In this document: piece by piece, positions 4,691 through 59,937 of the stretch
Layout: each line of letters opens with the position of its first letter
Position numbering within the stretch: position 1 is the first letter of the stretch
Notes under the pieces: generated by a model
Seen by the model: the letters and a program-made list of their open reading frames with translations, nothing else
What the model was told of the DNA's origin: nothing
The model's database searches: none
IMG/VR virus record: IMGVR_UViG_3300042198_000079
Location: 64,001 to 128,000 of that record
Source of the DNA: a virus
DNA: 64,000 nucleotides
Strand: one strand, 5' to 3'
Position numbers and translations under genes: made by a program

Positions 4691-5443
4691 TTAGTTAAAT
4701 ATGATTTCTACACCGAGTAAATGGGCATCGTGACCGTAAGTATCGCCGGATGCAGTAGCATTTCGGTAGATTTGGAATAATATCGGTGTGTTTGCTGCTG
4801 GTGTTCCTGCAATAGTAACTGCATTTGTTGCTGATGTAATGTGCATATCGTTCAGGGCAAGGAGAGTATCAGTTACCGTTTGTGCGTTACCAAATGAGGT
4901 ATCCAGTGCATCGTGATTTGCGAATGCACGACCTTGAATACTCCAGACGACATCATCATTACCGTCCCCAACTCCACTTGCCGTCCAATAAAATCGGGAA
5001 GTTATGGTAGAATTATTGTAGTTGTTTGGAAGGATGACAACAGCTTGGGCAAATTCGTTTGTAGTTGCATCGAAAAGAAGCTCATCCCAATTTGTGTGGT
5101 TAATAGGAAGTTCACGAGAATTCACTCTACATCCATTGGTTTTACGAGGAACCCATGTGTTTGCATTAATCCAAATGTTTGTTGCACCGAAATGACTACT
5201 TAATGAATTGAAATTTATTAGTAAATTATCTACTTCTACTTCAAGGGCACTTAAACTACCAGAATCGGAAAATTCATCAACTATATCAACAACATCTTCT
5301 ACTCTATAACTTCTTGGTCCTCCGTCAGAACTTTCTCCTGATATTATTTCAGAAGCTGTAACGAGAGGAGGAACTTCATATCTTCCCGGTGATCTCATTC
5401 CAGCTAATGGATCATAATAAGGATCATTTGACTCGTTACTCAT
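4691..5443 (-). CDS. Putative virion/tail-fibre-associated protein with a beta-rich C-terminal domain
   Basis: Late promoter at 5450-5457, 6 nt before ATG 5443. C-terminal FDATTNEFAQ..RFYWTA..VVWSIQG..FQIYR..DTYGHDAHLLGV domain resembles ends of phage fibre proteins. Confidence 0.5.
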   Translation of the reverse strand: MSNESNDPYYDPLAGMRSPGRYEVPPLVTASEIISGESSDGGPRSYRVEDVVDIVDEFSDSGSLSALEVEVDNLLINFNSLSSHFGATNIWINANTWVPRKTNGCRVNSRELPINHTNWDELLFDATTNEFAQAVVILPNNYNNSTITSRFYWTASGVGDGNDDVVWSIQGRAFANHDALDTSFGNAQTVTDTLLALNDMHITSATNAVTIAGTPAANTPILFQIYRNATASGDTYGHDAHLLGVEIIFN

Positions 5444-46357: not shown

Positions 46358-46855
46358 ATGTTAGAAAAATTTAATAATTATATCAATGAATTTCTTTTAG
46401 AAAAAAAAGATAGATGTCACAGAAAAGCCGAACAAGTTTATGGTAAAAAAACTTCTGCATATAGAAGCGGAGCAATAGTAAAATGCAGACAAGGCAAAAT
46501 CTGGAAAAAGAAAAAAATTAAAGAAAATACAATAAAAGAAGAGACGCTTGAAGAACCAACACAACTTAATGAAAAAAACACTTTCTCGAAAGAAAAAGAA
46601 AGTGGTTTACATGGTTGGTTTTCTCGTCAAGGAGGAAAAGGAAAAAGTAAAGGCTGGGTAGATTGTAATACCTGTCGTAAAGATAAAAAAACAGGAAAGA
46701 AAACCTGCAAAACCTGTGGAAGAGGCAAAGGCGAAAAAAGAAGCAAATATCCTGCCTGTCGTCCAACACCTTCAGCGTGTAATTCCAGAAAAAGATTAAA
46801 AAAAGGATCTAAAAGAATTTCTTGGAAAAAAGGAAGTAGAACGAAATCCAAATAA
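46358..46855 (+). CDS. Leader-tagged, very basic Cys-rich protein
   Basis: MLEKFNNYINEFLLE; SAYRSGAIVKCR and GLHGWF..GWVDC..YPACRP modules. TATAAATA at 46344-46351. Confidence 0.7.
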   Translation: MLEKFNNYINEFLLEKKDRCHRKAEQVYGKKTSAYRSGAIVKCRQGKIWKKKKIKENTIKEETLEEPTQLNEKNTFSKEKESGLHGWFSRQGGKGKSKGWVDCNTCRKDKKTGKKTCKTCGRGKGEKRSKYPACRPTPSACNSRKRLKKGSKRISWKKGSRTKSK

Positions 46856-46857
46856 AA

Positions 46858-47637
46858 TTATTCTGTTTCTAAGTTTAAATATTTTGGAGGAACGTGTCCG
46901 TGAATAATTAAAGTATCTTCGCTTATTCCCTCCCAAGATTCTACTTCGCAATAATAATTATCTAAGCCTATCATATGTGCCAAAGATCTTTTTAATTCAC
47001 ATATATTTACAGATTCTTCTTGTGTTACTTCTGGCATATATCCGTCCTTTTTCATTAATCCTAAATCAATACTAAAAACACAATCTCCATACGATCCTGA
47101 ACCGCTTAGTGCGTTTTCATCTTCGTCAGTAAAACAAAAAATAGCATCTCCTGTAGATCTATTAGATATTCCTCTTGTTTCATTTCTTGGTTCTAATCCA
47201 CGTTTTTTTATACTTTCTACATTTTTACGTGGTGTTGCATGATATATAAAGCTCACATTTTCCTTTTCTGGAACGCTATCCCAAAATGATTCTTCTTCTC
47301 GTTCTGGTAAAAGCATTTCTACATCATAATCAGATAAATTATCTAACCATTCATCAGCTTTTTCTGAACGACTACCGTCGTATATATAAGTGTCTTTTTT
47401 GAAATTATAAACTATATATTTTTCTTTTTCTTTACTTAATTCGACAACCCAAAACACAATTCCGAATAATGTAAATATTTCTTCTATTTCATAAAGTTCT
47501 AAATTTGTTAAAAAATAATCATCTCTTGGATCAAATTCAGACACATTGTCAATATTTAATATATTTTTATAGTGTCTTATTTTTCTTTCTTTCGCTCTTT
47601 CTTCATTATCGTCTTCGGGAACATCGAACAAAAGCAT
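46858..47637 (-). CDS. Protein with C-terminal Tpt1/KptA-like ADP-ribosyltransferase-fold domain
   Basis: IYHATPRKNVESIKKRGLEP, IFCFT, YGDCVFSIDL, HVPPKYL. In-frame upstream VLSKYNKFIKE. Confidence 0.6.
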   Translation of the reverse strand: MLLFDVPEDDNEERAKERKIRHYKNILNIDNVSEFDPRDDYFLTNLELYEIEEIFTLFGIVFWVVELSKEKEKYIVYNFKKDTYIYDGSRSEKADEWLDNLSDYDVEMLLPEREEESFWDSVPEKENVSFIYHATPRKNVESIKKRGLEPRNETRGISNRSTGDAIFCFTDEDENALSGSGSYGDCVFSIDLGLMKKDGYMPEVTQEESVNICELKRSLAHMIGLDNYYCEVESWEGISEDTLIIHGHVPPKYLNLETE

Positions 47638-47680: not shown

Positions 47681-48563
47681 ACACAAAGATACTTATATTA
47701 ATTTACTGGTTTAGTAATTAATTTCGTTTCGAGTTTCTTTATAAAATATTCTTATCCGTTAAGGTGGGATTTAAAATGTTTGTATAGCAGGACGAAATCT
47801 TGCTCTTTTTTCATCTATCACATCAAAATAAATTCTACCATATATTTCAAACGGATAACCAACAAAATCCATTATATTTCCTAAAATTGGAAGTTTAGAA
47901 CTAGTAAAATCCCAAATATCATAATATGAAATATATTCTCCTTCGTCGTCTTTACCATAACTTATTGTATAACTTCCCATAAATGTAGATTCTAGTCTAT
48001 GACTAGGAAAACCACATAAATCTGATATTTGACTGGAAGTTGCTGGTTTTCTTATTTTTTTAGCAACATCTACAAGTATTTTAGTATTTTCTTCTGACAT
48101 AATATAAAATTCTGCCAAATTATATTCTTTTTTCTCTGGTAAAATATCATAGTATATTGAATTTTTATTTTTACTTATTTTTGGGAGATGATTTGGATTT
48201 GTTATTTTAAAAAAACTTCTTTCTAACACTTCTTTATCTCCAGTAAGAAAATAATACCATGCATCATAATCTACTTTAAAATCATCTTCTAAATAATCAT
48301 CATTTTCAATGTCATCGAAATATTTATCTTTTGTCACACGTAGAATAAGATTTATAAATTCGTTTATACTTTTAGGAAATTCATTTCTTGGATCGATGTT
48401 TCTAAATATTCTGTCTGCCAATGATTTAGGCAACAACCCCTCATTTAATAAATTATCACAATATTTATTAAATGAATGTAATACAAACTTTTCTTTATTC
48501 ATATAAAGATATTTATATTGATTTACTGGTTTAGTAATTAATTTCAATTCAAGTTTCTCTATA
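47681..48563. repeat. 63-bp imperfect direct repeats (47681-47743 and 48501-48563), 820 bp apart
   Basis: 55/63 identical by hand alignment; shared core atttactggtttagtaattaatttc. Confidence 0.9.
47771..48502 (-). CDS. Leader-tagged hypothetical protein (second half of the 551-aa track ORF)
   Basis: Own TATAAATA at 48510-48517, 7 nt before ATG 48502; MNKEKFVLHSFNKYCDNLLNE; C-terminal GKDDEGEYISYYDIWDF..PFEIYGRIY. Confidence 0.7.
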   Translation of the reverse strand: MNKEKFVLHSFNKYCDNLLNEGLLPKSLADRIFRNIDPRNEFPKSINEFINLILRVTKDKYFDDIENDDYLEDDFKVDYDAWYYFLTGDKEVLERSFFKITNPNHLPKISKNKNSIYYDILPEKKEYNLAEFYIMSEENTKILVDVAKKIRKPATSSQISDLCGFPSHRLESTFMGSYTISYGKDDEGEYISYYDIWDFTSSKLPILGNIMDFVGYPFEIYGRIYFDVIDEKRARFRPAIQTF

Positions 48564-49426
48564 TTAATTTTAATTTTTGGAACATAATCTTTTGGAAGTT
48601 TGTTTTCTATACCTAAAAATTCTGTATTTTCGTCCACTATAAAAGTTAAAACAAGATCTGTTAAATTTAACATAATTTGCGAAGAGGTCCAGACTTTGTA
48701 GTTTGTTCTATATGGTTCTAAATAACCGGGAATTCCGTCATGATGTTTTCTGAGACTAGCAAGCAATTCTTCTGGAGTTTCTGATTTTCTTGCTTCTTTT
48801 GTTGCCAATCTATATCTAGACATAGACGATTTTCTATCTTTTCCTGTTTGATATCCTTGATCTGGATATTGAATACCGTGATTAGTTCTAACTATAATTT
48901 CATCTTTTCCAAACTTTTTAATTGACGGTTTTCCAAATTTCAATTTTTCAATTGAAACAAAATAATCTTTACAACCAACTGTTGTATGTCCTCCTATACC
49001 TCTTTGGTAAAGATCTAAACATTTTATAACTTTTTCGATATTACTATAACCAAGTGCTTTTCTTATTTTAAATCCATCTTTTGATATTTTTGTTTTTTTA
49101 TTTCTATGTTTTTTATCCATAGATACTCCTTCGTTTTCGTCTTTTTTTCCTTGTAGAGTAGTATTAACTATTCCTATACCAAATTCGTTCATTCCTTCCG
49201 AATAATCAGTTTCTTCATCGTGCATATATACTGTTTCTATCCCATTTATAATTTCTCTAACTATAGATATTCTCGGAATATATGTTCTATCTCTGTTTTT
49301 TGCTAAAATTACTTTTCCCGCAACCGAAGTTCCGACTGATGTGCATTCGTTTAATATTTTAAAATTATGATTATTTAAAGTTTCCAATAAAAACTTATTA
49401 TATTTATGTAAAAATAAAAAATTCAT
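47771..49426 (-). CDS. Ntn-hydrolase (C45/choloylglycine hydrolase-like) reading through in frame into the next gene
   Basis: E/CTSVG..LAKNRDR, SEGMNEFGIGIVN, VRTNHG, SSMSR. AATAAATA 6 nt before ATG. Confidence 0.8.
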   Translation of the reverse strand: MNFLFLHKYNKFLLETLNNHNFKILNECTSVGTSVAGKVILAKNRDRTYIPRISIVREIINGIETVYMHDEETDYSEGMNEFGIGIVNTTLQGKKDENEGVSMDKKHRNKKTKISKDGFKIRKALGYSNIEKVIKCLDLYQRGIGGHTTVGCKDYFVSIEKLKFGKPSIKKFGKDEIIVRTNHGIQYPDQGYQTGKDRKSSMSRYRLATKEARKSETPEELLASLRKHHDGIPGYLEPYRTNYKVWTSSQIMLNLTDLVLTFIVDENTEFLGIENKLPKDYVPKIKINIEKLELKLITKPVNQYKYLYMNKEKFVLHSFNKYCDNLLNEGLLPKSLADRIFRNIDPRNEFPKSINEFINLILRVTKDKYFDDIENDDYLEDDFKVDYDAWYYFLTGDKEVLERSFFKITNPNHLPKISKNKNSIYYDILPEKKEYNLAEFYIMSEENTKILVDVAKKIRKPATSSQISDLCGFPSHRLESTFMGSYTISYGKDDEGEYISYYDIWDFTSSKLPILGNIMDFVGYPFEIYGRIYFDVIDEKRARFRPAIQTF

Positions 49427-51568: not shown

Positions 51569-52597
51569 ATGAATTCTGATTTTTCTGTTCCAGATTTTAA
51601 ACTATTTCCAGTTACTAGGGATTTTATAGGAAGCACTGTTAAAAATCTTTGGCACCTTGAACAATTGGGATTAAAAAATGTTTGGGAAACAACTAAAGGA
51701 TCTGGTATAAAAATAGCAATTTTAGATTCTGGATTTGCACCACATGAAGAAATTAGTAATGTAAAAGAATCGATATCTTTTGTTTTAGATGAAGACGAAA
51801 TAGATTATGCCGGACACGGAACTAGTGTAATAGGGATCTTGGGATCTAAGTGCAAAGAACTTTGCGGCATATGTCCTGAATCAGAAATATATTCTTTAAA
51901 GATTTTGAATAGATATATCGAAGGAAATTTTGATTCTTTGTATAAAGCACTAGAATGGTGTTTAAAAAATAAACCAGATATAATAAATTTATCAATATCT
52001 TCCAAAACGGTTATGCCTCCCAATATAAAACAAATATTGGAAGAATTGTACAATCAAAATATAATTATATGTGCATCGACTGGGAACGATAGTTCGGAAA
52101 TTTCTTATCCTGCAAAATATGAATCCGTATTTTCAATAGGAGCATATGATCGAGACGGCAACATTGCAGCATTTTCTAACAGAGGAAACGAAATAGACTT
52201 TTCTGCTCCCGGTGTTGACATTTATACATGTAGTAATAAAAATAATGGATATGTACATGCGACCGGAACTAGTTTTGCTAGTCCGATATTTGCAGGAATA
52301 GTTTCTTTAATTTTATCAAAACACACTTTTGAAAGCATTAATCAATTAAAAACATATTTGGTAAAACACGTAAAAGATATGGGAGAAAAAGGATGGGATA
52401 AATTTTATGGATGGGGAAGCATTATACCAGAAACTGGTATAGAAATTTCAAACGATAAAACTTCTATCCGAGAAGAAAAAATTATATTGGGGACAAAACA
52501 AAAATGCTTTATAGATGATTTGCTTTTTCTTTTAAAGTCATTTAATAATTTAATAGGAAACGATAAAAATAAATTTCCAATATATCACAAAAATTAA
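51569..52597 (+). CDS. Subtilisin-family (S8) serine protease
   Basis: Triad ILDSG / GHGTSV / GTSFASP; oxyanion STGN. Confidence 0.95.
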   Translation: MNSDFSVPDFKLFPVTRDFIGSTVKNLWHLEQLGLKNVWETTKGSGIKIAILDSGFAPHEEISNVKESISFVLDEDEIDYAGHGTSVIGILGSKCKELCGICPESEIYSLKILNRYIEGNFDSLYKALEWCLKNKPDIINLSISSKTVMPPNIKQILEELYNQNIIICASTGNDSSEISYPAKYESVFSIGAYDRDGNIAAFSNRGNEIDFSAPGVDIYTCSNKNNGYVHATGTSFASPIFAGIVSLILSKHTFESINQLKTYLVKHVKDMGEKGWDKFYGWGSIIPETGIEISNDKTSIREEKIILGTKQKCFIDDLLFLLKSFNNLIGNDKNKFPIYHKN

Positions 52598-53088
52598 TAA
52601 TTAGTTTGAAAATTTTTCAAATCTTTTTCGCTCCAAATTTGGAACTCCCATCCTTTTTTATCACAATGTTCTTTTGCGGTTTTCCATTTTTGAATATTCA
52701 TTAAAGTTTCATTTATTCTATAATTCCAAGTAGAGATTTTCTCTCTAGGTGATTTGATTAATGTTTTGTTTTCTGTTAATAATTTAACATTGTTTATTTG
52801 TTTTTGTGGTTTTATTTCTGCTAATATTATTTTTCCATCAGACGTTTCTATAATAAAATCTACAAAATATCTTGCGTTTCTTACTGTTCCGTCTTTCTGA
52901 ATTTTTTTGTAAGATATCCAATACAGTTCGCTTCCCCATTTTTTTATTTTAGGAGATCTGTCCAACAGTCTCATATAATCTGCTTCTAATTTAGATCTAT
53001 AAAAAGGCAAGTTTTCGTTTAAAAGTTTCTGAGGATTTGACGGTTTCCAAAATCCTTGCTTGTAACCATCTTTGTTAATTTTGCCCAT
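52594..53088 (-). CDS. Head completion nuclease (gp4/TnsA-like)
   Basis: YKQG.WKP.NPQK, YRSKLE, WGSE, YFVDF, EIKP, KW..A..C..GWEF. TATAAATA at 53100-53107. Confidence 0.9.
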   Translation of the reverse strand: MGKINKDGYKQGFWKPSNPQKLLNENLPFYRSKLEADYMRLLDRSPKIKKWGSELYWISYKKIQKDGTVRNARYFVDFIIETSDGKIILAEIKPQKQINNVKLLTENKTLIKSPREKISTWNYRINETLMNIQKWKTAKEHCDKKGWEFQIWSEKDLKNFQTNY

Positions 53089-53128: not shown

Positions 53129-53509
53129 ATGATGATGAATAATGCATTTAAGTCGCCGGAACTAAACCGTCAAAACCTTAATACTCTTTTTCCTACAAAG
53201 GATTATGTTCCTGTTCAAATATTATTTGTAACAGAAAGAATAAACGAACCGGGGAGAAAATATTACAGACTTCCTAAAAGCAAAGTAGCATATTCGATGG
53301 GGTCTTTAAATATAACAATAGGAGATCTTACTATTGATGAACTTTATGATTATGTAGATCAAACTATGGAAGATAGTATATATGAAGGAAACATATTAGA
53401 TATAAAAATAGAAGAACCCCCGAATTATCAAAATTATCAAAATACTGAACAACAACAGCAACAACAAAATAACCCCTCAAATATTACTGGTAATATTATT
53501 ACTATTTGA
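53129..53509 (+). CDS. Hypothetical protein
   Basis: GGTAAATA 6 nt before ATG; Gln-rich tail. Confidence 0.55.
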   Translation: MMMNNAFKSPELNRQNLNTLFPTKDYVPVQILFVTERINEPGRKYYRLPKSKVAYSMGSLNITIGDLTIDELYDYVDQTMEDSIYEGNILDIKIEEPPNYQNYQNTEQQQQQQNNPSNITGNIITI

Positions 53510-53961
53510 ATTTTTGTTATATGGAATGGGAAAATGTTCCAGAAAATTTGGACGAATGGTTCGGATTTGTATATTTGATAGAAAGATTGAATGCAAAGGA
53601 AAACGAAAAAAAATATTATTGGGGATGTAAAACTTTAAAGAAAACAGTAAAATTAAATCCATTAAAAGGATATAAAAGAAAAAGAAAAAAAATATCCGAT
53701 ACTGATTGGAAAAATTATTATGGAAGTAGTGAAGAATTAAAAAAAGATATAGATATACATGGTAAAGAAAATTTTAAAAGAACAATGATAAAAATGTGTA
53801 AAAGCAAATGGGAATTAAAATACGAAGAATTAAAAATTCAAATAGAAAACGATGTTTTATTTAGAGAAGATACATACAACGGAATAATAAATGCAAGATT
53901 GGGGAATTGTCCAAAAGTTTTAAAAGAAGAATATTTAAAATCTAAAACATTAAATACTTGA
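53506..53961 (+). CDS. GIY-YIG-like endonuclease (start may be ATG 53521)
   Basis: FGFVYLIE..KYYWGCK..DWKNYYGSS..GKENFKR..YNG. Confidence 0.75.
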   Translation: MNFCYMEWENVPENLDEWFGFVYLIERLNAKENEKKYYWGCKTLKKTVKLNPLKGYKRKRKKISDTDWKNYYGSSEELKKDIDIHGKENFKRTMIKMCKSKWELKYEELKIQIENDVLFREDTYNGIINARLGNCPKVLKEEYLKSKTLNT

Positions 53962-54412: not shown

Positions 54413-55825
54413 ATGGTTGTAAAAATTATACATGTAGATAATAGATTAGCAAAAATAATATGTGATAAATCCTTATTAACGAGAATTCGTAATTTTTTTT
54501 CATATAGACAAACTACATGGAAAAATAAAAGAAAGACTTCTTATATAGAATATCTTTTTAATATTTCTGGAATTTTTAAAAAAGGATTAATACCTTTATT
54601 ACAAGAATATTTAAATGTTAATAACATTGTTCATACGGTAGAATATTCTTATGAAAGAAAGATAGTTCCCATAGAAGAAGATAAAATATGGTTTCCAAAA
54701 AACAAAGAACCGTTTGATTACCAATTAAAAGCAGTTCTTCGTTCTTTAAAAAGAGAAAGAGGACTTTGGGATTTGGCAACTTCATCTGGTAAATCTCTTA
54801 CTGCATGTATGTTTATACAATCATTTTTAAATCATCATGATGGTTCCAAGGCAATGTTTGTCGTCAATGATACAAACCTTTTATATCAAGCTCAGAAAGA
54901 CTTTATAGAATATGGAACAGATCCTGATGATATTACCTTATGGGGCGATTTTAATGTTCCCGATTTTAATAAAAAAATTTTAATTGTTATAAGCAAATCT
55001 CTAATATCAAACTTTGAATTTAGTTATTCTTTTACAAAAGACAGAACATTGCTTTTTTGTGATGAAGTTGATTTAGTAGCAAATCCAAAAACACAAATAC
55101 ATAAATTTATAGATAATCATTCGTCTGAATTTAGATTTGGATGTACAGGAACTATACCGTCTGATATATATTTAAAACATAAATTGATTAGTAATTTTGG
55201 GGACATTATAATAAAAAAATCAGCAGAAGAATTAAGAACAACTGGAGTTTTAACTAGTTGTGAAGTTTTACCTTTTATGGTTTTTCACGACGAAAAGAGT
55301 AAAGAAACATTATCTTGGGAAGAAGAATTTGATTATATCTGTAATTCTAATGAAAGAAATAAACTTTTATTAGATATTGCAATTTCATTAAAAACCAATA
55401 CTCTCTTGTTGGTAGATAGAATATCGCAGATAGAATACATAGAGTCAATATCAAAAGACATATCAGATAAAGAAATTTTTTTTATGAGAGGAGATATTCG
55501 ATCCGAACAAAGAAAAGAAATTTTAGATAAAATGGAAACAATAAACAACGGTATTGTTGTTTCCATATCTACTTTATTTTCAAGAGGCGTTAGTGTTAAA
55601 AATATACATAATGTTATTTGTTCTTCTTTAGGCAAATCAGAATCGAGAATAATACAAACAATAGGAAGAGGTTTAAGAAAACACAAAACAAAAAATAAAG
55701 CACTTATTATAGATGTTTTTGATAATCTTAAATATTCGAAAAAACACTGGAATAGCAGAAAAGAAGTTTATGCATCAGAAAATATACCAATATTATATCA
55801 AAAAACTTTTGATATAAATATTTAA
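54413..55825 (+). CDS. uvsW: UvsW SF2 helicase
   Basis: DYQ, LATSSGKS, CDEV, RFGCTGT, FSRGVSVKNIH, QTIGRGLR. Confidence 0.93.
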   Translation: MVVKIIHVDNRLAKIICDKSLLTRIRNFFSYRQTTWKNKRKTSYIEYLFNISGIFKKGLIPLLQEYLNVNNIVHTVEYSYERKIVPIEEDKIWFPKNKEPFDYQLKAVLRSLKRERGLWDLATSSGKSLTACMFIQSFLNHHDGSKAMFVVNDTNLLYQAQKDFIEYGTDPDDITLWGDFNVPDFNKKILIVISKSLISNFEFSYSFTKDRTLLFCDEVDLVANPKTQIHKFIDNHSSEFRFGCTGTIPSDIYLKHKLISNFGDIIIKKSAEELRTTGVLTSCEVLPFMVFHDEKSKETLSWEEEFDYICNSNERNKLLLDIAISLKTNTLLLVDRISQIEYIESISKDISDKEIFFMRGDIRSEQRKEILDKMETINNGIVVSISTLFSRGVSVKNIHNVICSSLGKSESRIIQTIGRGLRKHKTKNKALIIDVFDNLKYSKKHWNSRKEVYASENIPILYQKTFDINI

Positions 55826-56620
55826 ATGAAGTCTTTTAGACAATATTTAAATAGTTTTTTAACAGAAAATTCCAAAAAAGAAGCGTTCGATCCGGCGCAG
55901 CAGGACGCGGATTACATGGCCGCAGTCAATGCCGCGACTCAAGCAAGGAATGAAATCATTGACCGGTTTAATGCGGAAAATGTTTTCATTTTCCGCGACC
56001 TAGTGCAGAGCTTTGGTCAGCCGCCAACCGCAGGAGACATTCAGAACGACGACACCGACGATGAGCAGACTCAATTTGCGTCTTGGAAGTATCGCTACGG
56101 CGAGGCGGCGGGGTATTTCGTCACCAGAAATCGAACTCGAAAAGAAAACGGACAATGGGGCCAATGGTCTAAATGGGAAGCCTTTTCTCCAAAGTTCGAC
56201 CGACCGACGGACACGTTTGAAACCGCTGACGAAGCGATTGCTTGGTTGCGAACAGCGCCAATCATGGATGCAGGCAACCAAGTTGCGCTTGCCAAAACGT
56301 ATGAATCAGATCGCAATCGGGCGCTGGCAACATTTGAACTTCTGAATAAACTTGCAGTGCCTTCAGGCTGGACGTTGGTAAACGCACAAGACAGTCAATT
56401 CGGATCAAAGTATTGGAACCTAGTTGCTTCGGACGGCACAAAATACAAACTTTCGGTTCGGTCGCATGAACCTTCGCCCAAATGGCAGGCAGAACTTGGC
56501 GCAATTGATTATTACGTGCCGCTTCGATGGGATAAAGGCGACGCGATAAAGACCGTTCCGCTAGAAGACATTTCAGAAGCAATGTCTAAATTGGAAGATT
56601 GGTTGCGATCAAAAGCTTAA
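55826..56620 (+). CDS. Leader-tagged fragment of a GC-rich polyvalent-type protein
   Basis: AT-rich MKSFRQYLNSFLTE leader fused to GC-rich QQDADYMAAV...; TATAAATA at 55813-55820. Confidence 0.75.
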   Translation: MKSFRQYLNSFLTENSKKEAFDPAQQDADYMAAVNAATQARNEIIDRFNAENVFIFRDLVQSFGQPPTAGDIQNDDTDDEQTQFASWKYRYGEAAGYFVTRNRTRKENGQWGQWSKWEAFSPKFDRPTDTFETADEAIAWLRTAPIMDAGNQVALAKTYESDRNRALATFELLNKLAVPSGWTLVNAQDSQFGSKYWNLVASDGTKYKLSVRSHEPSPKWQAELGAIDYYVPLRWDKGDAIKTVPLEDISEAMSKLEDWLRSKA

Positions 56621-57424
56621 GGCAATCTTTCCGCCCTAGCGACGCCGCAGCAAGACGCTGCCTACCTCGCAGCCGTCGAGGCGGGCGATATGAAGACGGC
56701 GCAGCGAATGGTGAATGATGCGGCTGAAAATAAACAAACAGTTTTCCGAGGGCAAAAAGGCTTTCAGAGTAAATACCCGAAAAGCACTAAAGGATTCTTT
56801 GGGGTTGGACAGAAGATTGTTCCAACTTTTTGGACAACTTCCGAATCATTAGCAAAAGATTATTCTCGCGATGGAGAATACAAAGGATCGACAACACCAT
56901 CAGCAGAAGCGCAGAAAGGAATCGCTGCATGGGAATACGAGAATGTCTGGACAAGGAGTGACGGTTCACAATACACAACCACGGACACTACAACTGATAA
57001 GGGCATAGCGGAAAAGGCAAAAGAACAAGGAAGAAGAGTTAAAGAAACAAGGGTCTTCCCTCAAACCGCAACTGTGCAATCTGCAAAGTTGTTTTTCAAA
57101 AAACCTCTTGTGCTTGATGCAAACGGAGCAATTTGGCGAGAAGTGAATTTCAAAGGTAGGAAGATGTCTACCGATCAGATCGTTGAATACGCTTTCAAAA
57201 ACGGATATGATGGAGTGGAAATTAAGAATGTCAGAGATTCTTTTGCGGGGTTAAGGTTTGAAGATACCTCTAATGTATTGGTCTCATTTTATCCCGAACA
57301 AGTAAAATCCGCAGACCCAGTAACCTACGACGAATCCGGCAACATAATCCCACTTTCCAAACGATTTAATCCTGATAGCGAATCAATCAATGAATCAAAT
57401 GTCATATTTTCATATTGGAGTTAA
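56621..57424 (+). CDS. ART-PolyVal-like domain, in frame with the preceding ORF after a single TAA
   Basis: QQDAAYLAAVEAGDMKTAQRMV, VFRG, FWTT..AKDY, GYDGVEIKNVRD, QVKSADPVTYDESGNIIPLSKRFN. Confidence 0.7.
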   Translation, partial: GNLSALATPQQDAAYLAAVEAGDMKTAQRMVNDAAENKQTVFRGQKGFQSKYPKSTKGFFGVGQKIVPTFWTTSESLAKDYSRDGEYKGSTTPSAEAQKGIAAWEYENVWTRSDGSQYTTTDTTTDKGIAEKAKEQGRRVKETRVFPQTATVQSAKLFFKKPLVLDANGAIWREVNFKGRKMSTDQIVEYAFKNGYDGVEIKNVRDSFAGLRFEDTSNVLVSFYPEQVKSADPVTYDESGNIIPLSKRFNPDSESINESNVIFSYWS

Positions 57425-58870
57425 TTCTTGGGTATTCTCGTCATAAAAAGATACAATTCTTAATATTTTTCTTTTTTCTCTTTCTGCGATTTTTTGCATT
57501 TTTTCTATTTCTGTTTCGTAATATTTTTCAGGATCTTTTTTATATTTTGAAATTACTTCATCTGAAAATATTTTATTTAATTCTTCACTAATATCATCTT
57601 CTGCTGTGGGGTTAAGCACATGTTTAGATCCTATACTAAATAATTCGCTTGGGGGGAGGATTTCATAAAACGTGTCTTCTAAGCGTTGTTTAAAAATATT
57701 AAGAATTTTGTCTAAAAATGATTTTATCACTAGAATATCAGTTTCATTTTTCAATTTATTTATCAAATCTTTTCTAAATTTTACACACTCCTCAAAAAGT
57801 GGTATTAAATCTGTAAGGTTACTTCTTCTTAAGAAATGGATAACCACATCGGGTTTTTCATTTTCCAATACATTTAATATAGTATGAGCGATTTTGGTAT
57901 TATTGTGAAATTTTTGTAATACAAAATCAGTAATCTCAGTAATTTCTAAAAATTTAATAATTTTGTCTTTTTCTTCTTTTTCTTTCAACCCATTTATAAA
58001 ATTATTATATGAAAACTTATGTATTTCGTCTAATTTTTTATATAATTCGTTATTTTTTATTGCATTTATCAAATCGTTTTTTGTTTCAAATTTTCTTCTT
58101 TTATTACCATGTGAAAAAAGACTAGAATATATCTGTGTAGGATAATTAGGTATTTCTATTTTATCTATAAAATATTTATTATGATAAAATTTATAAATAT
58201 TTTTGATATTATAAACTGGAAGTATTGCCTTCCTGAAATCCGAATTTGTAAAATATTCTACCATCTCCCCAAATCCCGTTCCTGTTTTATTTCGTTTTCT
58301 CCTTGTAAATATATGACCAAGTTCATGAGACACAGCACTGACACATTCAGAATTTAATTCGTCTAATCCCTCTATAATTTTATTTTTTGTATTAGGAATT
58401 GTTAGCGGATCGATATCTAGAATTGCGCCTTTATTTAACAAATATTTTATTGTTATTTGTATTGTATCTTGATCTTCATAAATAATATATTTGCCTTTTT
58501 TGTGTTTTGCAATTGGAACTTGTGTAGATGCACCTCTCATGACAATTTTTTTATCTTTATGTAAATTTCCCAACGAATCAAAATTTTCTATAAAATCAAT
58601 TGTTATTCGGTATGTTAATTTATTAAATATTTTATCTCCTATTACAAATTCATCGCCAGCATTACATACATATTGACCATCTATTATAGATGAAGTCCGG
58701 TCATTATTATAGAACTTATTAAAATCCATGATTACTGATCTATTATTTCGGTTTAAATCCTCTATAATTTTATCATATATTATTGTGTATATTCTTTCTG
58801 ATACTTCGTGTATTTTTGGAAAAATCCCTCTGGCTTCTGATAAAAGCAAATATTCTTTAAATGTTTTCAT
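57410..58870 (-). CDS. Leader-tagged HExxH metallopeptidase-like protein
   Basis: MKTFKEYLLLSEARG; VSHELGH and downstream YFIDKIE. TATAAATA at 58878-58885. Confidence 0.65.
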   Translation of the reverse strand: MKTFKEYLLLSEARGIFPKIHEVSERIYTIIYDKIIEDLNRNNRSVIMDFNKFYNNDRTSSIIDGQYVCNAGDEFVIGDKIFNKLTYRITIDFIENFDSLGNLHKDKKIVMRGASTQVPIAKHKKGKYIIYEDQDTIQITIKYLLNKGAILDIDPLTIPNTKNKIIEGLDELNSECVSAVSHELGHIFTRRKRNKTGTGFGEMVEYFTNSDFRKAILPVYNIKNIYKFYHNKYFIDKIEIPNYPTQIYSSLFSHGNKRRKFETKNDLINAIKNNELYKKLDEIHKFSYNNFINGLKEKEEKDKIIKFLEITEITDFVLQKFHNNTKIAHTILNVLENEKPDVVIHFLRRSNLTDLIPLFEECVKFRKDLINKLKNETDILVIKSFLDKILNIFKQRLEDTFYEILPPSELFSIGSKHVLNPTAEDDISEELNKIFSDEVISKYKKDPEKYYETEIEKMQKIAEREKRKILRIVSFYDENTQELTPI

Positions 58871-58922
58871 TTACATTTATTTATATTCGTAAATATAAAT
58901 AAATATATAATAAAGTCTATTT

Positions 58923-59177
58923 ATGGACAAAAATCAACTGGAAGATTTGAAAGAATTGGGTAAAAATTATAAAAATGAATGGGCTTTTTTATGCAAACAT
59001 AAAGTTTTTATGGACAATATTCTTGACAAACTGCCATGGCACATGGTAATATTAGCAGAAGTTTTATTGGCTCATAAAGAAGTATCATTATGGGCGGACT
59101 TTGAAAAAAATTATCTATCAAAAGTAAAATCCAAACTCAAACAACACGTAACACAATATAGCGATGATTATCTATAA
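58923..59177 (+). CDS. Hypothetical protein
   Basis: 84-aa ORF downstream of TATAAATA at 58894-58901. Confidence 0.55.
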   Translation: MDKNQLEDLKELGKNYKNEWAFLCKHKVFMDNILDKLPWHMVILAEVLLAHKEVSLWADFEKNYLSKVKSKLKQHVTQYSDDYL

Positions 59178-59937
59178 TGAAGATTGTATAACAACGATGA
59201 ATAGACTGGAATTGCAAGATTCTGTGAATTTTATTATTTGCAGTCCGCCTTATGGAAATTGTAGAACTTATGAAAATCTTGGATTGGCTAGTTTCGATTT
59301 TCATAAAATCGCACAAGGAACTTTAAATGTTTTAAAAGAAGGTGGAGTAATTGCATGGATTGTTGGAGACACAACAGAAAATGGAAGCGAAACAGGAATA
59401 CCGTTTGAACAAGCATTATATTTTAAGAGTCTTGGGTATCGTCTACACGACACAATGATTTATCAAAAGAATAATTTTAGCAATCCGTCCAAAACTCGGT
59501 ACCATCAAATTTTCGAATATATTTTTCTATTCTCCAAAGGTGTTCCGAAAACATTTAATCCAATAAAAGATAGGAAAAATAAATACGGAGGAAAGGTGGG
59601 AAGTTGGGGAAAGAATACAGTTCGTCAAAAAGACGGATCATTTTTAGAAAGAAAGAAAAAAATAAATTCTGAATATGGAATGAGATATAATATTTGGAAA
59701 TACAAAACCTCTAAAAATGGACAAGAGGACGATATTGCATATAAACACCCAGCAATTTTTCCGATAAATTTAGCACAAGATTTAATCATATCATTTACAA
59801 ATCCGGGTGATCTAGTTTACGATCCATTAGCTGGAAGTGGCACTTCTTTAAAAGCCGCGAAAGATTTAAATAGACAATATATTGGAAGTGAGATAGTATC
59901 TAATTATTGTGATATAATAAACGAGAGGTTGTCATAA
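59164..59937 (+). CDS. DNA N4-cytosine/N6-adenine methyltransferase (beta class)
   Basis: CSPPY precedes HPAIFP and DPLAGSGT; no cognate restriction nuclease adjacent. Confidence 0.93.
   Translation: MIIYNEDCITTMNRLELQDSVNFIICSPPYGNCRTYENLGLASFDFHKIAQGTLNVLKEGGVIAWIVGDTTENGSETGIPFEQALYFKSLGYRLHDTMIYQKNNFSNPSKTRYHQIFEYIFLFSKGVPKTFNPIKDRKNKYGGKVGSWGKNTVRQKDGSFLERKKKINSEYGMRYNIWKYKTSKNGQEDDIAYKHPAIFPINLAQDLIISFTNPGDLVYDPLAGSGTSLKAAKDLNRQYIGSEIVSNYCDIINERLS

Follow-up and report, generated by a model that had tools for sequence, protein, structure and literature searches.

The window analysed here was a stretch of 64,000 nt, bases 64001-128000 of the IMG/VR virus contig IMGVR_UViG_3300042198_000079 (144,634 bp, 29.5% G+C, 67% complete by the CheckV estimate); positions are those of the window unless given for the whole contig (genome) or for another contig. 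The genome is that of an uncultured, AT-rich, freshwater phage, a distant relative of phage T4. The subject is a foreign insert downstream of its gene for a UvsW-like helicase, where two modules related to those of giant polyvalent proteins stand behind a T4-type late promoter and a predicted capsid targeting sequence (CTS).

The left anchor of the locus is the UvsW-like gene (54413-55825, + strand; Pfam ResIII and Helicase_C), the product of which is ~30% identical to UvsW/helicases of Campylobacter and other T4-like phages. The T4-type late promoter box TATAAATA (55813-55820, +) lies inside the end of this gene, 5 nt before the ATG (55826) of the first open reading frame (ORF1). From this ATG a native, AT-rich leader of 19 residues is read (55826-55882, +; MKSFRQYLNSFLTENSKKE, start MKSFRQYLNSFLTE), the predicted CTS, with L-T-E at residues 12-14; it is followed by foreign module 1 (55883-56617, +; 245 aa), which opens with the degenerate polyvalent linker QQDADYMAAV (55898-55927). 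An in-frame TAA stands at the module boundary (56618-56620, +) in all assemblies compared. Behind it the same frame continues (56621-56689, +) with the linker start of module 2, QQDAAYLAAV (56645-56674), untranslated if the TAA is obeyed, and into ORF2 (56690-57424, +; 244 aa), a divergent, untagged module of the ART-PolyVal type (ART, ADP-ribosyltransferase), foreign to about 57397. A convergent tagged gene of native composition (486 aa, MKTFKEYLLLSE...; 57410-58870, − strand) completes a block of 3.1 kb, and an 84-aa gene with an N6/N4 DNA methylase gene (58923-59937, +; Pfam N6_N4_Mtase) forms the right anchor. The native late promoter and leader upstream of the insert were thus found as originally predicted.

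Composition of the insert: The foreign DNA extends over ~1,515 bp (about 55883-57397), with G+C of 50% in module 1 and 44% in module 2; the leader has 19%. An abrupt switch of composition had been predicted and was located at about 55883: in 200-nt sliding intervals G+C was 0.25 at 55700-55899, 0.51-0.53 at 55900-56399 and 0.23 at 57400-57599, and the counts quoted for two 60-nt blocks (8/60 at 55801-55860, 41/60 at 56641-56700) were reproduced exactly. Codon-position G+C, a measure in line with the suggested codon-usage plot, likewise separated the insert from the native genes; G+C at third codon positions (GC3) was 49% in module 1 and 39% in module 2, as against 16% for the leader and 14-25% for the native genes nearby. 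The last eight codons of ORF2, after ~57397, are AT-rich, and native sequence returns 12-25 nt ahead of the stop codon of the convergent 486-aa gene. Since the insert starts ~5 residues ahead of a linker helix and ends at a ...PLSKRF...SI module-closing element (alignment A2), it is made up of two whole module units.

Other high-G+C blocks exist in the genome. The one examined (L004:818-2902, genome 13817-15901) encodes a late, tail-fibre-like protein of 694 aa that has HTHDISSITNLQT-type repeats in tandem and, towards its C-terminus, a long region rich in glycine; this region is the top G+C peak of the genome (67%) and is not due to horizontal transfer. A peak of G+C alone is not enough, because that peak is native, and foreign origin is settled by donor homology. 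The contig end (L003:1-900, genome 1-900) reaches 57% G+C and is without a convincing ORF; it could be a second foreign fragment or an end artefact.

Donor class: Polyvalent proteins, known from phages and conjugative elements, combine two to 15 domains with differing activities in a single chain (Iyer et al. 2017, PMC5512222). In alignment A2 their modules open with a linker helix of consensus DADYLAAVERGDMETAQRMVDEAA and close with ...QIKSADPVTYD..GNVIPLS.RF....I. The two repeats of the original prediction, QQDADYMAAV and QQDAAYLAAV, are copies of this conserved N-terminal linker helix; the first was found at 55898 as indicated, and the second starts at 56645, not at about 56648. Both halves of the insert, read through the TAA as one sequence (P0001), were searched exhaustively and among long proteins. 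Module 2 (P0001 residues 276-524) was 82% identical to residues 750-997 of a metagenomic protein of 2,375 aa (P0002) and shared 47-58% identity with internal stretches of further proteins, 640 to 2,650 aa long; relatives of it are encoded by 189 viral-contig stretches. At the DNA level module 2 (56663-57366) was 85.4% identical to the P0002 gene, which lies on L002, a contig of 55% G+C, and in a lagoon metagenome (run X6) a contig of 670 nt was 96% identical to 56736-57332, nearer than any donor gene retrieved. Contig depth from run X6 was very high over 56605-56778 and 57301-57387, a reflection of linker elements common to many polyvalent genes.

Module 1 (P0001 residues 36-262) was 39% identical, over 261 aligned positions, to residues 4935 to about 5165-5186 of P0128, a protein of 6,293 aa and the sole clear relative within the 150 top-scoring proteins from a set of 1.84 billion representatives. 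P0128 further carries ART-like, ParB-like, methylase and helicase regions, a domain mix that is the hallmark of a polyvalent protein (PMC5512222). No match to module 1 was obtained in Pfam, PHROG, NCBIfam or PDB sequences, ESM Atlas scores were 0.78 or less, and no relatives were found among proteins of similar length or, by pattern, in viral or metagenome contigs. The AlphaFold 2 (AF2) model of module 1, built on a two-row alignment, had a mean predicted local distance difference test score (pLDDT) of 53 and was unusable.

These matches support a derivation of the insert from internal modules of giant polyvalent proteins, in agreement with the predicted foreign origin from giant proteins. A leader already present on donor homologues had been named as a refutation; these homologues do not start with it, the matches being internal (residues 750-997 of 2,375; 4935-5165 of 6,293). 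An apparent leader on donor P0003 (MTFSQEF) was internal to a frame of 2,646 aa broken by a scaffold gap and was rejected. A donor with module 1 adjoining module 2 was sought with a degenerate DNA pattern of a conserved stretch of module 2; four metagenome contigs matched the pattern and none had this arrangement, three of them carrying module 2 relatives 52-56% identical. Because the TAA makes the modules separate ORFs, the locus is derived from a polyvalent protein and is not itself one.

Age of the insert: The ratio of non-synonymous to synonymous substitution rates (dN/dS) between module 2 and L002 was 0.15, which indicates purifying selection through most of the divergence between the two. 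On the window's own branch, polarised with L002, six non-synonymous and five synonymous changes were counted, too few to conclude from. The window differed from L002 by A/T for G/C at 51 positions and by the reverse at 31 (P 0.035, unpolarised); the changes polarised to the window branch against the 96%-identical lagoon contig were five to A/T and four to G/C. No clear compositional drift is visible in the insert, the counts being too small to date it; the predicted recent transfer is suggested by missing amelioration, which yields no date.

Junctions: The exact ORF1 protein, crossing the 5' junction and ending at the TAA, was present on five contigs. A Logan assembly contig of a public run (L006, 59.7 kb) was 100% identical to the window across 12.8 kb, both junctions included; a contig of the Joint Genome Institute (JGI) from another sample (L007, 1,656 bp) corresponds to 55818-57473 and contains both junctions, again at 100% identity. 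All 280 of 280 sampled 31-mers of 55300-57900 were present in two runs of two studies, the sampling density being roughly three per junction. The junctions, for which read support had been called for, were in this way reproduced letter for letter in other assemblies. L007, the sole contig with the ORF1 gene in its JGI sample, ends 8 nt short of the ATG on one side and 49 nt past the ORF2 stop on the other; such ends near the cassette limits could reflect strain variants with other flanks, or simply low coverage.

Late promoter and leader: Long ORFs (100 aa or more) were counted genome-wide (n = 139). The box TATAAATA stands within 40 nt of the start codon in 27 of them, in 25 of these at 5-13 nt, other tagged genes included (e.g. 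55813-55828, 58871-58925); late mRNAs would at this spacing be leaderless or nearly so. ORF1 is predicted by the position of its promoter to be expressed late. Its leader begins MKSFRQY, to be compared with MKTFKEF of T4 internal protein (IP) I and MKTYQEF of IPII/III, with the aromatic residues at positions 4 and 7 kept; in the T4 record IPII and IPIII begin MKTYQEFIAE and IPI begins MKTFKEFTSTTTPVSTITE. In T4 the first ten residues suffice for capsid targeting, positions 4 and 7 matter most, and the protease gp21 cleaves after L/I-x-E (PMC9026906). The corresponding L-T-E of the ORF1 leader gives a predicted cut after 55867, and a gene for a Peptidase_S77 prohead protease is present (genome 37409-37831; 54.3 bits, over the Pfam cut-off).

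Similar leaders, in a short and a long form, open ~17 genes with unrelated bodies across the genome; those in the window include MKTFKEYLLLSE, MLTFKKYLLNE, MRSFKNYILCE and MINFKKYLLE. The N-terminal tag motif occurred in 9 of the 139 long ORFs and at 1 of 629 internal Met positions (P about 2e-12). On these sequence comparisons the identification of the ORF1 leader as a putative CTS is well supported. The leaders are mutually 48-61% identical in DNA, and with so low an identity the ORF1 leader is not a recent copy of another one.

Split of the reading frame: Leader and insert had been taken for one continuous tagged fusion protein, and this part of the prediction failed. The frame 55826-57424 is broken by a single TAA, its 531 other codons being open, and the products are ORF1 (55826-56620, 264 aa, tagged), in which module 1 alone stands behind the leader, and ORF2; the ART-like half is untagged because the TAA cuts module 2 from the leader. 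Reassignment or suppression of TAA was considered and rejected: TAA ends 91 of the 139 ORFs, being the commonest genuine stop of the genome, and aragorn found zero tRNA genes in 144 kb. The TAA is either a very recent nonsense mutation or kept by selection. The ATG of ORF2 at 56690 has GAGG 8 nt upstream, which says little on translation of ORF2 because a Shine-Dalgarno-like motif precedes only 7 of the 139 ORFs; the scarcity of such sites hints at a host that may not use them, e.g. one of the Bacteroidota. No terminator-like site was found on the + strand between ORF1 and ORF2, and the promoter/terminator scan gave nothing above shuffles that bears on the locus. Expression of ORF2 is uncertain, though its frame is intact.

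Fold of module 2: The predicted ART-PolyVal-like domain was borne out in its fold and fell short of the Pfam cut-off. The match of module 2 to PF18760 (ART-PolyVal) had E 3.9e-5 and 24.9 bits (cut-off 31.2), and apart from this sub-threshold match no Pfam family reached E 0.1; of the 30 relatives aligned with module 2, however, 27 matched PF18760 at E 0.001 or better. The AF2 model, built on the alignment of the relatives, had a pLDDT of 89.5 and a predicted template modelling score (pTM) of 0.83. It was compared with 48,161 representative chains (VIA-align), and 19 of the 20 top chains were of the ART fold or closely allied: PARP2 (Z 5.4; root mean square deviation (rmsd) 4.9, 120 aligned), exotoxin A (5.3), ParT (5.2) and MbcT (5.2), with tankyrase, a cyanophage pre-ejectosome protein and an anti-CRISPR among the other matches listed. 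Foldseek of the model against PDB gave nothing at E 0.001 or better, and a PDB profile search by sequence found nothing. The model places module 2 in the ADP-ribosyltransferase fold, an assignment made on the consistency of the match list and on sequence, and not on the modest Z values.

The active site of ART-PolyVal consists of H (strand 1), Y (strand 2) and D (strand 5) (PMC5512222). Alignment A2 has RGQ (R43) at the HGT position, both for the window and for its closest subfamily (VFRGQ); the Asp of GYDG (D197) is conserved and strand 2 reads FWTTS. Activity of module 2 is uncertain because the strand-1 His is replaced by Arg; the replacement is not damage to this copy, since the whole closest subfamily, in intact giants, carries Arg.

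A probable older tag-ART fusion: The genome was searched with the collected giant proteins, and a protein of 272 aa was found outside the window (genome 31926-32741, −; L093:927-1742). It begins METFKQWLNE, has native composition (30.5% G+C, GC3 18%), can be aligned from residue ~11 to its end with internal modules of at least ten giants (24-30% identity, E to 2e-22), opens with an AYHGS strand-1 motif and gives weak Pfam matches to DUF3990 and ART-PolyVal. These features point to a tag-ART fusion that is old and has been ameliorated. This lineage has thereby long retained an ART of the polyvalent type behind a head tag, and because of this retention the fresh capture resembles the repeat of a productive route and not a freak. 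The proposal that the leader recruits new cargo is consistent with this fusion and with the ~17 tagged genes, body swap and arrival of a whole cassette both being compatible with the data.

The 272-aa gene lies near the prohead protease gene in a run (L093:1-4953, genome 31000-35950) of six or more genes on the minus strand that begin like tagged ones, mostly long-form (MLTKFNNYLNSMLNE, MFEKFNKYFYSMLNE, MLKKFNDYLKSFF, MEKFNNYINQFLLE, MKSYLYEYITE) with one short-form start (MISFKNYLIE); the run includes a very basic protein of 92 aa resembling T4 internal proteins and two paralogues of ~188 aa. Within the window an untagged protein of 259 aa (46858-47637, −) has an IYHAT...GL motif and matches weakly a module of the giant protein P0152 (32% over 130 aa, E 1e-5), perhaps as a further enzyme of ART- or Tpt1-like type. 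Beside its gene lies that of a tagged, very basic protein of 165 aa (46358-46855, +). The gene at 48518-49366 (−) matched Pfam AAT (PF03417; 24.9 bits, cut-off 23.2), in line with an N-terminal nucleophile (Ntn) hydrolase.

The locus in relatives: Two relatives were found by protein search (UvsW 64% and 55% identical), and UvsW patterns gave no relatives in viral contigs. The nearer of the two (L091/L092, UvsW 64%) has its left-hand genes in the same order as the window: subtilase, TnsA-like, small ORFs, SegE-like endonuclease, UvsW. In L091 uvsW is followed immediately by a late promoter and then by homologues of the 84-aa gene (61%; 80 aa) and of the methylase (79%). The interval 55826-58922 (3.1 kb; ORF1, ORF2 and the 486-aa tagged gene) is without counterpart in L091, and no homologue of the 486-aa gene was found there. 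The 3.1-kb block is a variable locus downstream of uvsW. The comparison with relatives that had been proposed thus revealed the absence of the whole block and left two modes of origin standing: the body of a pre-existing tagged gene was replaced, or the whole cassette arrived. Replacement of the body would explain the native leader together with the eight AT-rich final codons. Genes for SegE-like GIY-YIG homing endonucleases and a TnsA-like protein lie just 5' of uvsW (53506-53961, 52594-53088; L091:7142-8472) in the window and in the relative, in unequal copy numbers; the SegE-like endonucleases could drive turnover of the adjoining variable locus.

Interpretation: A genuine, compositionally fresh horizontal acquisition of two consecutive polyvalent modules behind a late promoter and a CTS is favoured, at a probability of roughly 0.7. 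The two modules would have been joined in frame behind promoter and CTS by illegitimate recombination. The ORF1 gene would then be transcribed late, from a few bases before its ATG; the leader would dock the 264-aa product (tag and module 1) on the prohead scaffolding core, the Peptidase_S77 prohead protease would remove the tag after L-T-E, and the trimmed module 1 protein would leave the head with the DNA and be ejected into the next host, in the manner of T4 IPI-III and Alt. The TAA would later have uncoupled module 2 from the tag, and module 2 may now be a just-disabled remnant, an untagged late enzyme made from 56690 or a minor read-through product.

Several points weigh against this acquisition as formulated. 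The TAA leaves the sole module with a recognisable activity untagged, and in that module the strand-1 His is Arg (VFRGQ), the PF18760 gathering cut-off is missed (24.9 vs 31.2 bits) and no structural Z score exceeds 5.4, a modest value. A donor with the modules side by side was not found, and a one-step transfer is for this reason an assumption. All junction-bearing assemblies are 100% identical freshwater data, maybe of one campaign, and the junction evidence is at the level of assembled contigs and sampled 31-mers.

The insertion may be real and yet dead on arrival: it would have fallen into a dispensable locus, would be of no benefit and decaying, with the TAA as its first lesion, and neither half would be a functioning injected effector. 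The in-frame TAA, the replaced catalytic His, the absence of the whole block from the nearest relative and the lack of amelioration, which leaves little time under selection in this genome, would all fit such a course; the six non-synonymous and five synonymous changes of the own branch would point the same way but are too few to be conclusive. However, the fusion is in frame, placed at the leader and bounded at module limits; all but one of the codons are open, and the 244 codons of ORF2 are intact, as would hardly be expected of drifting DNA. Arg at the His position is common to the whole closest subfamily in intact giants, and the older tag-ART fusion has been retained in the genome. Decay from the outset is considered unlikely.

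A functional split, in which module 1 is injected and the ART is made untagged in the producing cell or as a low-level tagged read-through product, is regarded as doubtful. ORF2 is intact, its ATG at 56690 is preceded by GAGG at 8 nt, no terminator-like site separates the ORFs on the + strand and the TAA is fixed in all assemblies; in T4, moreover, Alt is packaged, and ModA and ModB, which are paralogues of it, act without being packaged (PMC5512222). Against this, the stop stands in a UAA-G context and there is no suppressor tRNA, Shine-Dalgarno sites are scarce in this genome and G+C is high ahead of the ATG, and no relative with the same split was found.

An assembly chimera, in which the assembler joined a G+C-rich fragment of another organism into the phage contig, might be suspected from the metagenomic source, the abrupt G+C switch and junction support at the level of contigs and 31-mers, but it is very improbable. 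Both junctions recur at 100% identity in the Logan contig and in the separate short JGI contig, and every sampled 31-mer occurs in each of two runs from two studies; the join, moreover, keeps the frame of the leader, and native DNA returns 12-25 nt ahead of the convergent gene's stop.

Beyond the acquisition itself, it is tentatively proposed, as possible but not probable, that T4-type tags and polyvalent proteins share one pool of effector modules co-delivered with DNA and exchanged by recombination at linker boundaries. The genome would then display the start and the end of such an exchange, in the fresh two-module capture and in the old, ameliorated tag-ART fusion. The TAA would on this proposal be an early step in the breaking of a polyvalent string into single-module genes, tagged or untagged.

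Comparison with known systems: The CTS has long been held to let T4-like phages load varied proteins into the head. For the classical T-even loci we know of no established origin of the tagged proteins. That the T-even internal proteins are diverse and have nothing but the tag in common is established (Mullaney and Black 1996 and Repoila et al. 1994, as cited in PMC3012670 and PMC9026906). The present locus resembles that of T4 IPI/IPII/IPIII in the short propeptide (aromatic residues 4 and 7, L/I-x-E), predicted late expression, a gp21-type protease, many bodies and a variable locus; it differs in that the body has an identifiable foreign donor, in a much larger tag family (~17 genes) with two tag lengths and in being known from sequence. 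Polyvalent proteins are approached through both modules, which are homologous to modules of 2,000-6,300-aa proteins and keep the linker helix and PLSxRF, and through the same predicted role, since delivery of polyvalent proteins with DNA has been predicted (PMC5512222). Unlike these proteins, the insert is a fragment of two modules, split by a stop and provided with a T4-type tag, in a T4-like phage.

Alt-type ARTs of T4-like phages were not found in polyvalent proteins (PMC5512222), and the present case is the converse, a polyvalent-type ART in a T4-like phage. T4 Alt shares the ART fold and a late gene beside head-targeting signals and may serve as a functional analogue of a tagged ART. In contrast to Alt (R-S-E, Alt/VIP2 clade), module 2, which gave no Pfam match to Alt families, probably belongs to the ART-PolyVal (HYD2-like) lineage and is untagged. 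No paper with both "polyvalent protein" and "capsid targeting" was found in the searched literature. Assays of packaging and anti-defence could draw on the locus for a natural tag of 19 residues and for two cargo modules not yet characterised, and with a nameable donor class, breakpoints within a few codons and the donor base composition kept the locus is a testable case of effector acquisition. What sets it apart from the known systems is that the captured DNA can be assigned to a donor class, is still unameliorated and has mapped breakpoints, while the genome also contains an ameliorated counterpart. The case links T4-type tagged internal proteins with polyvalent proteins, so far treated apart.

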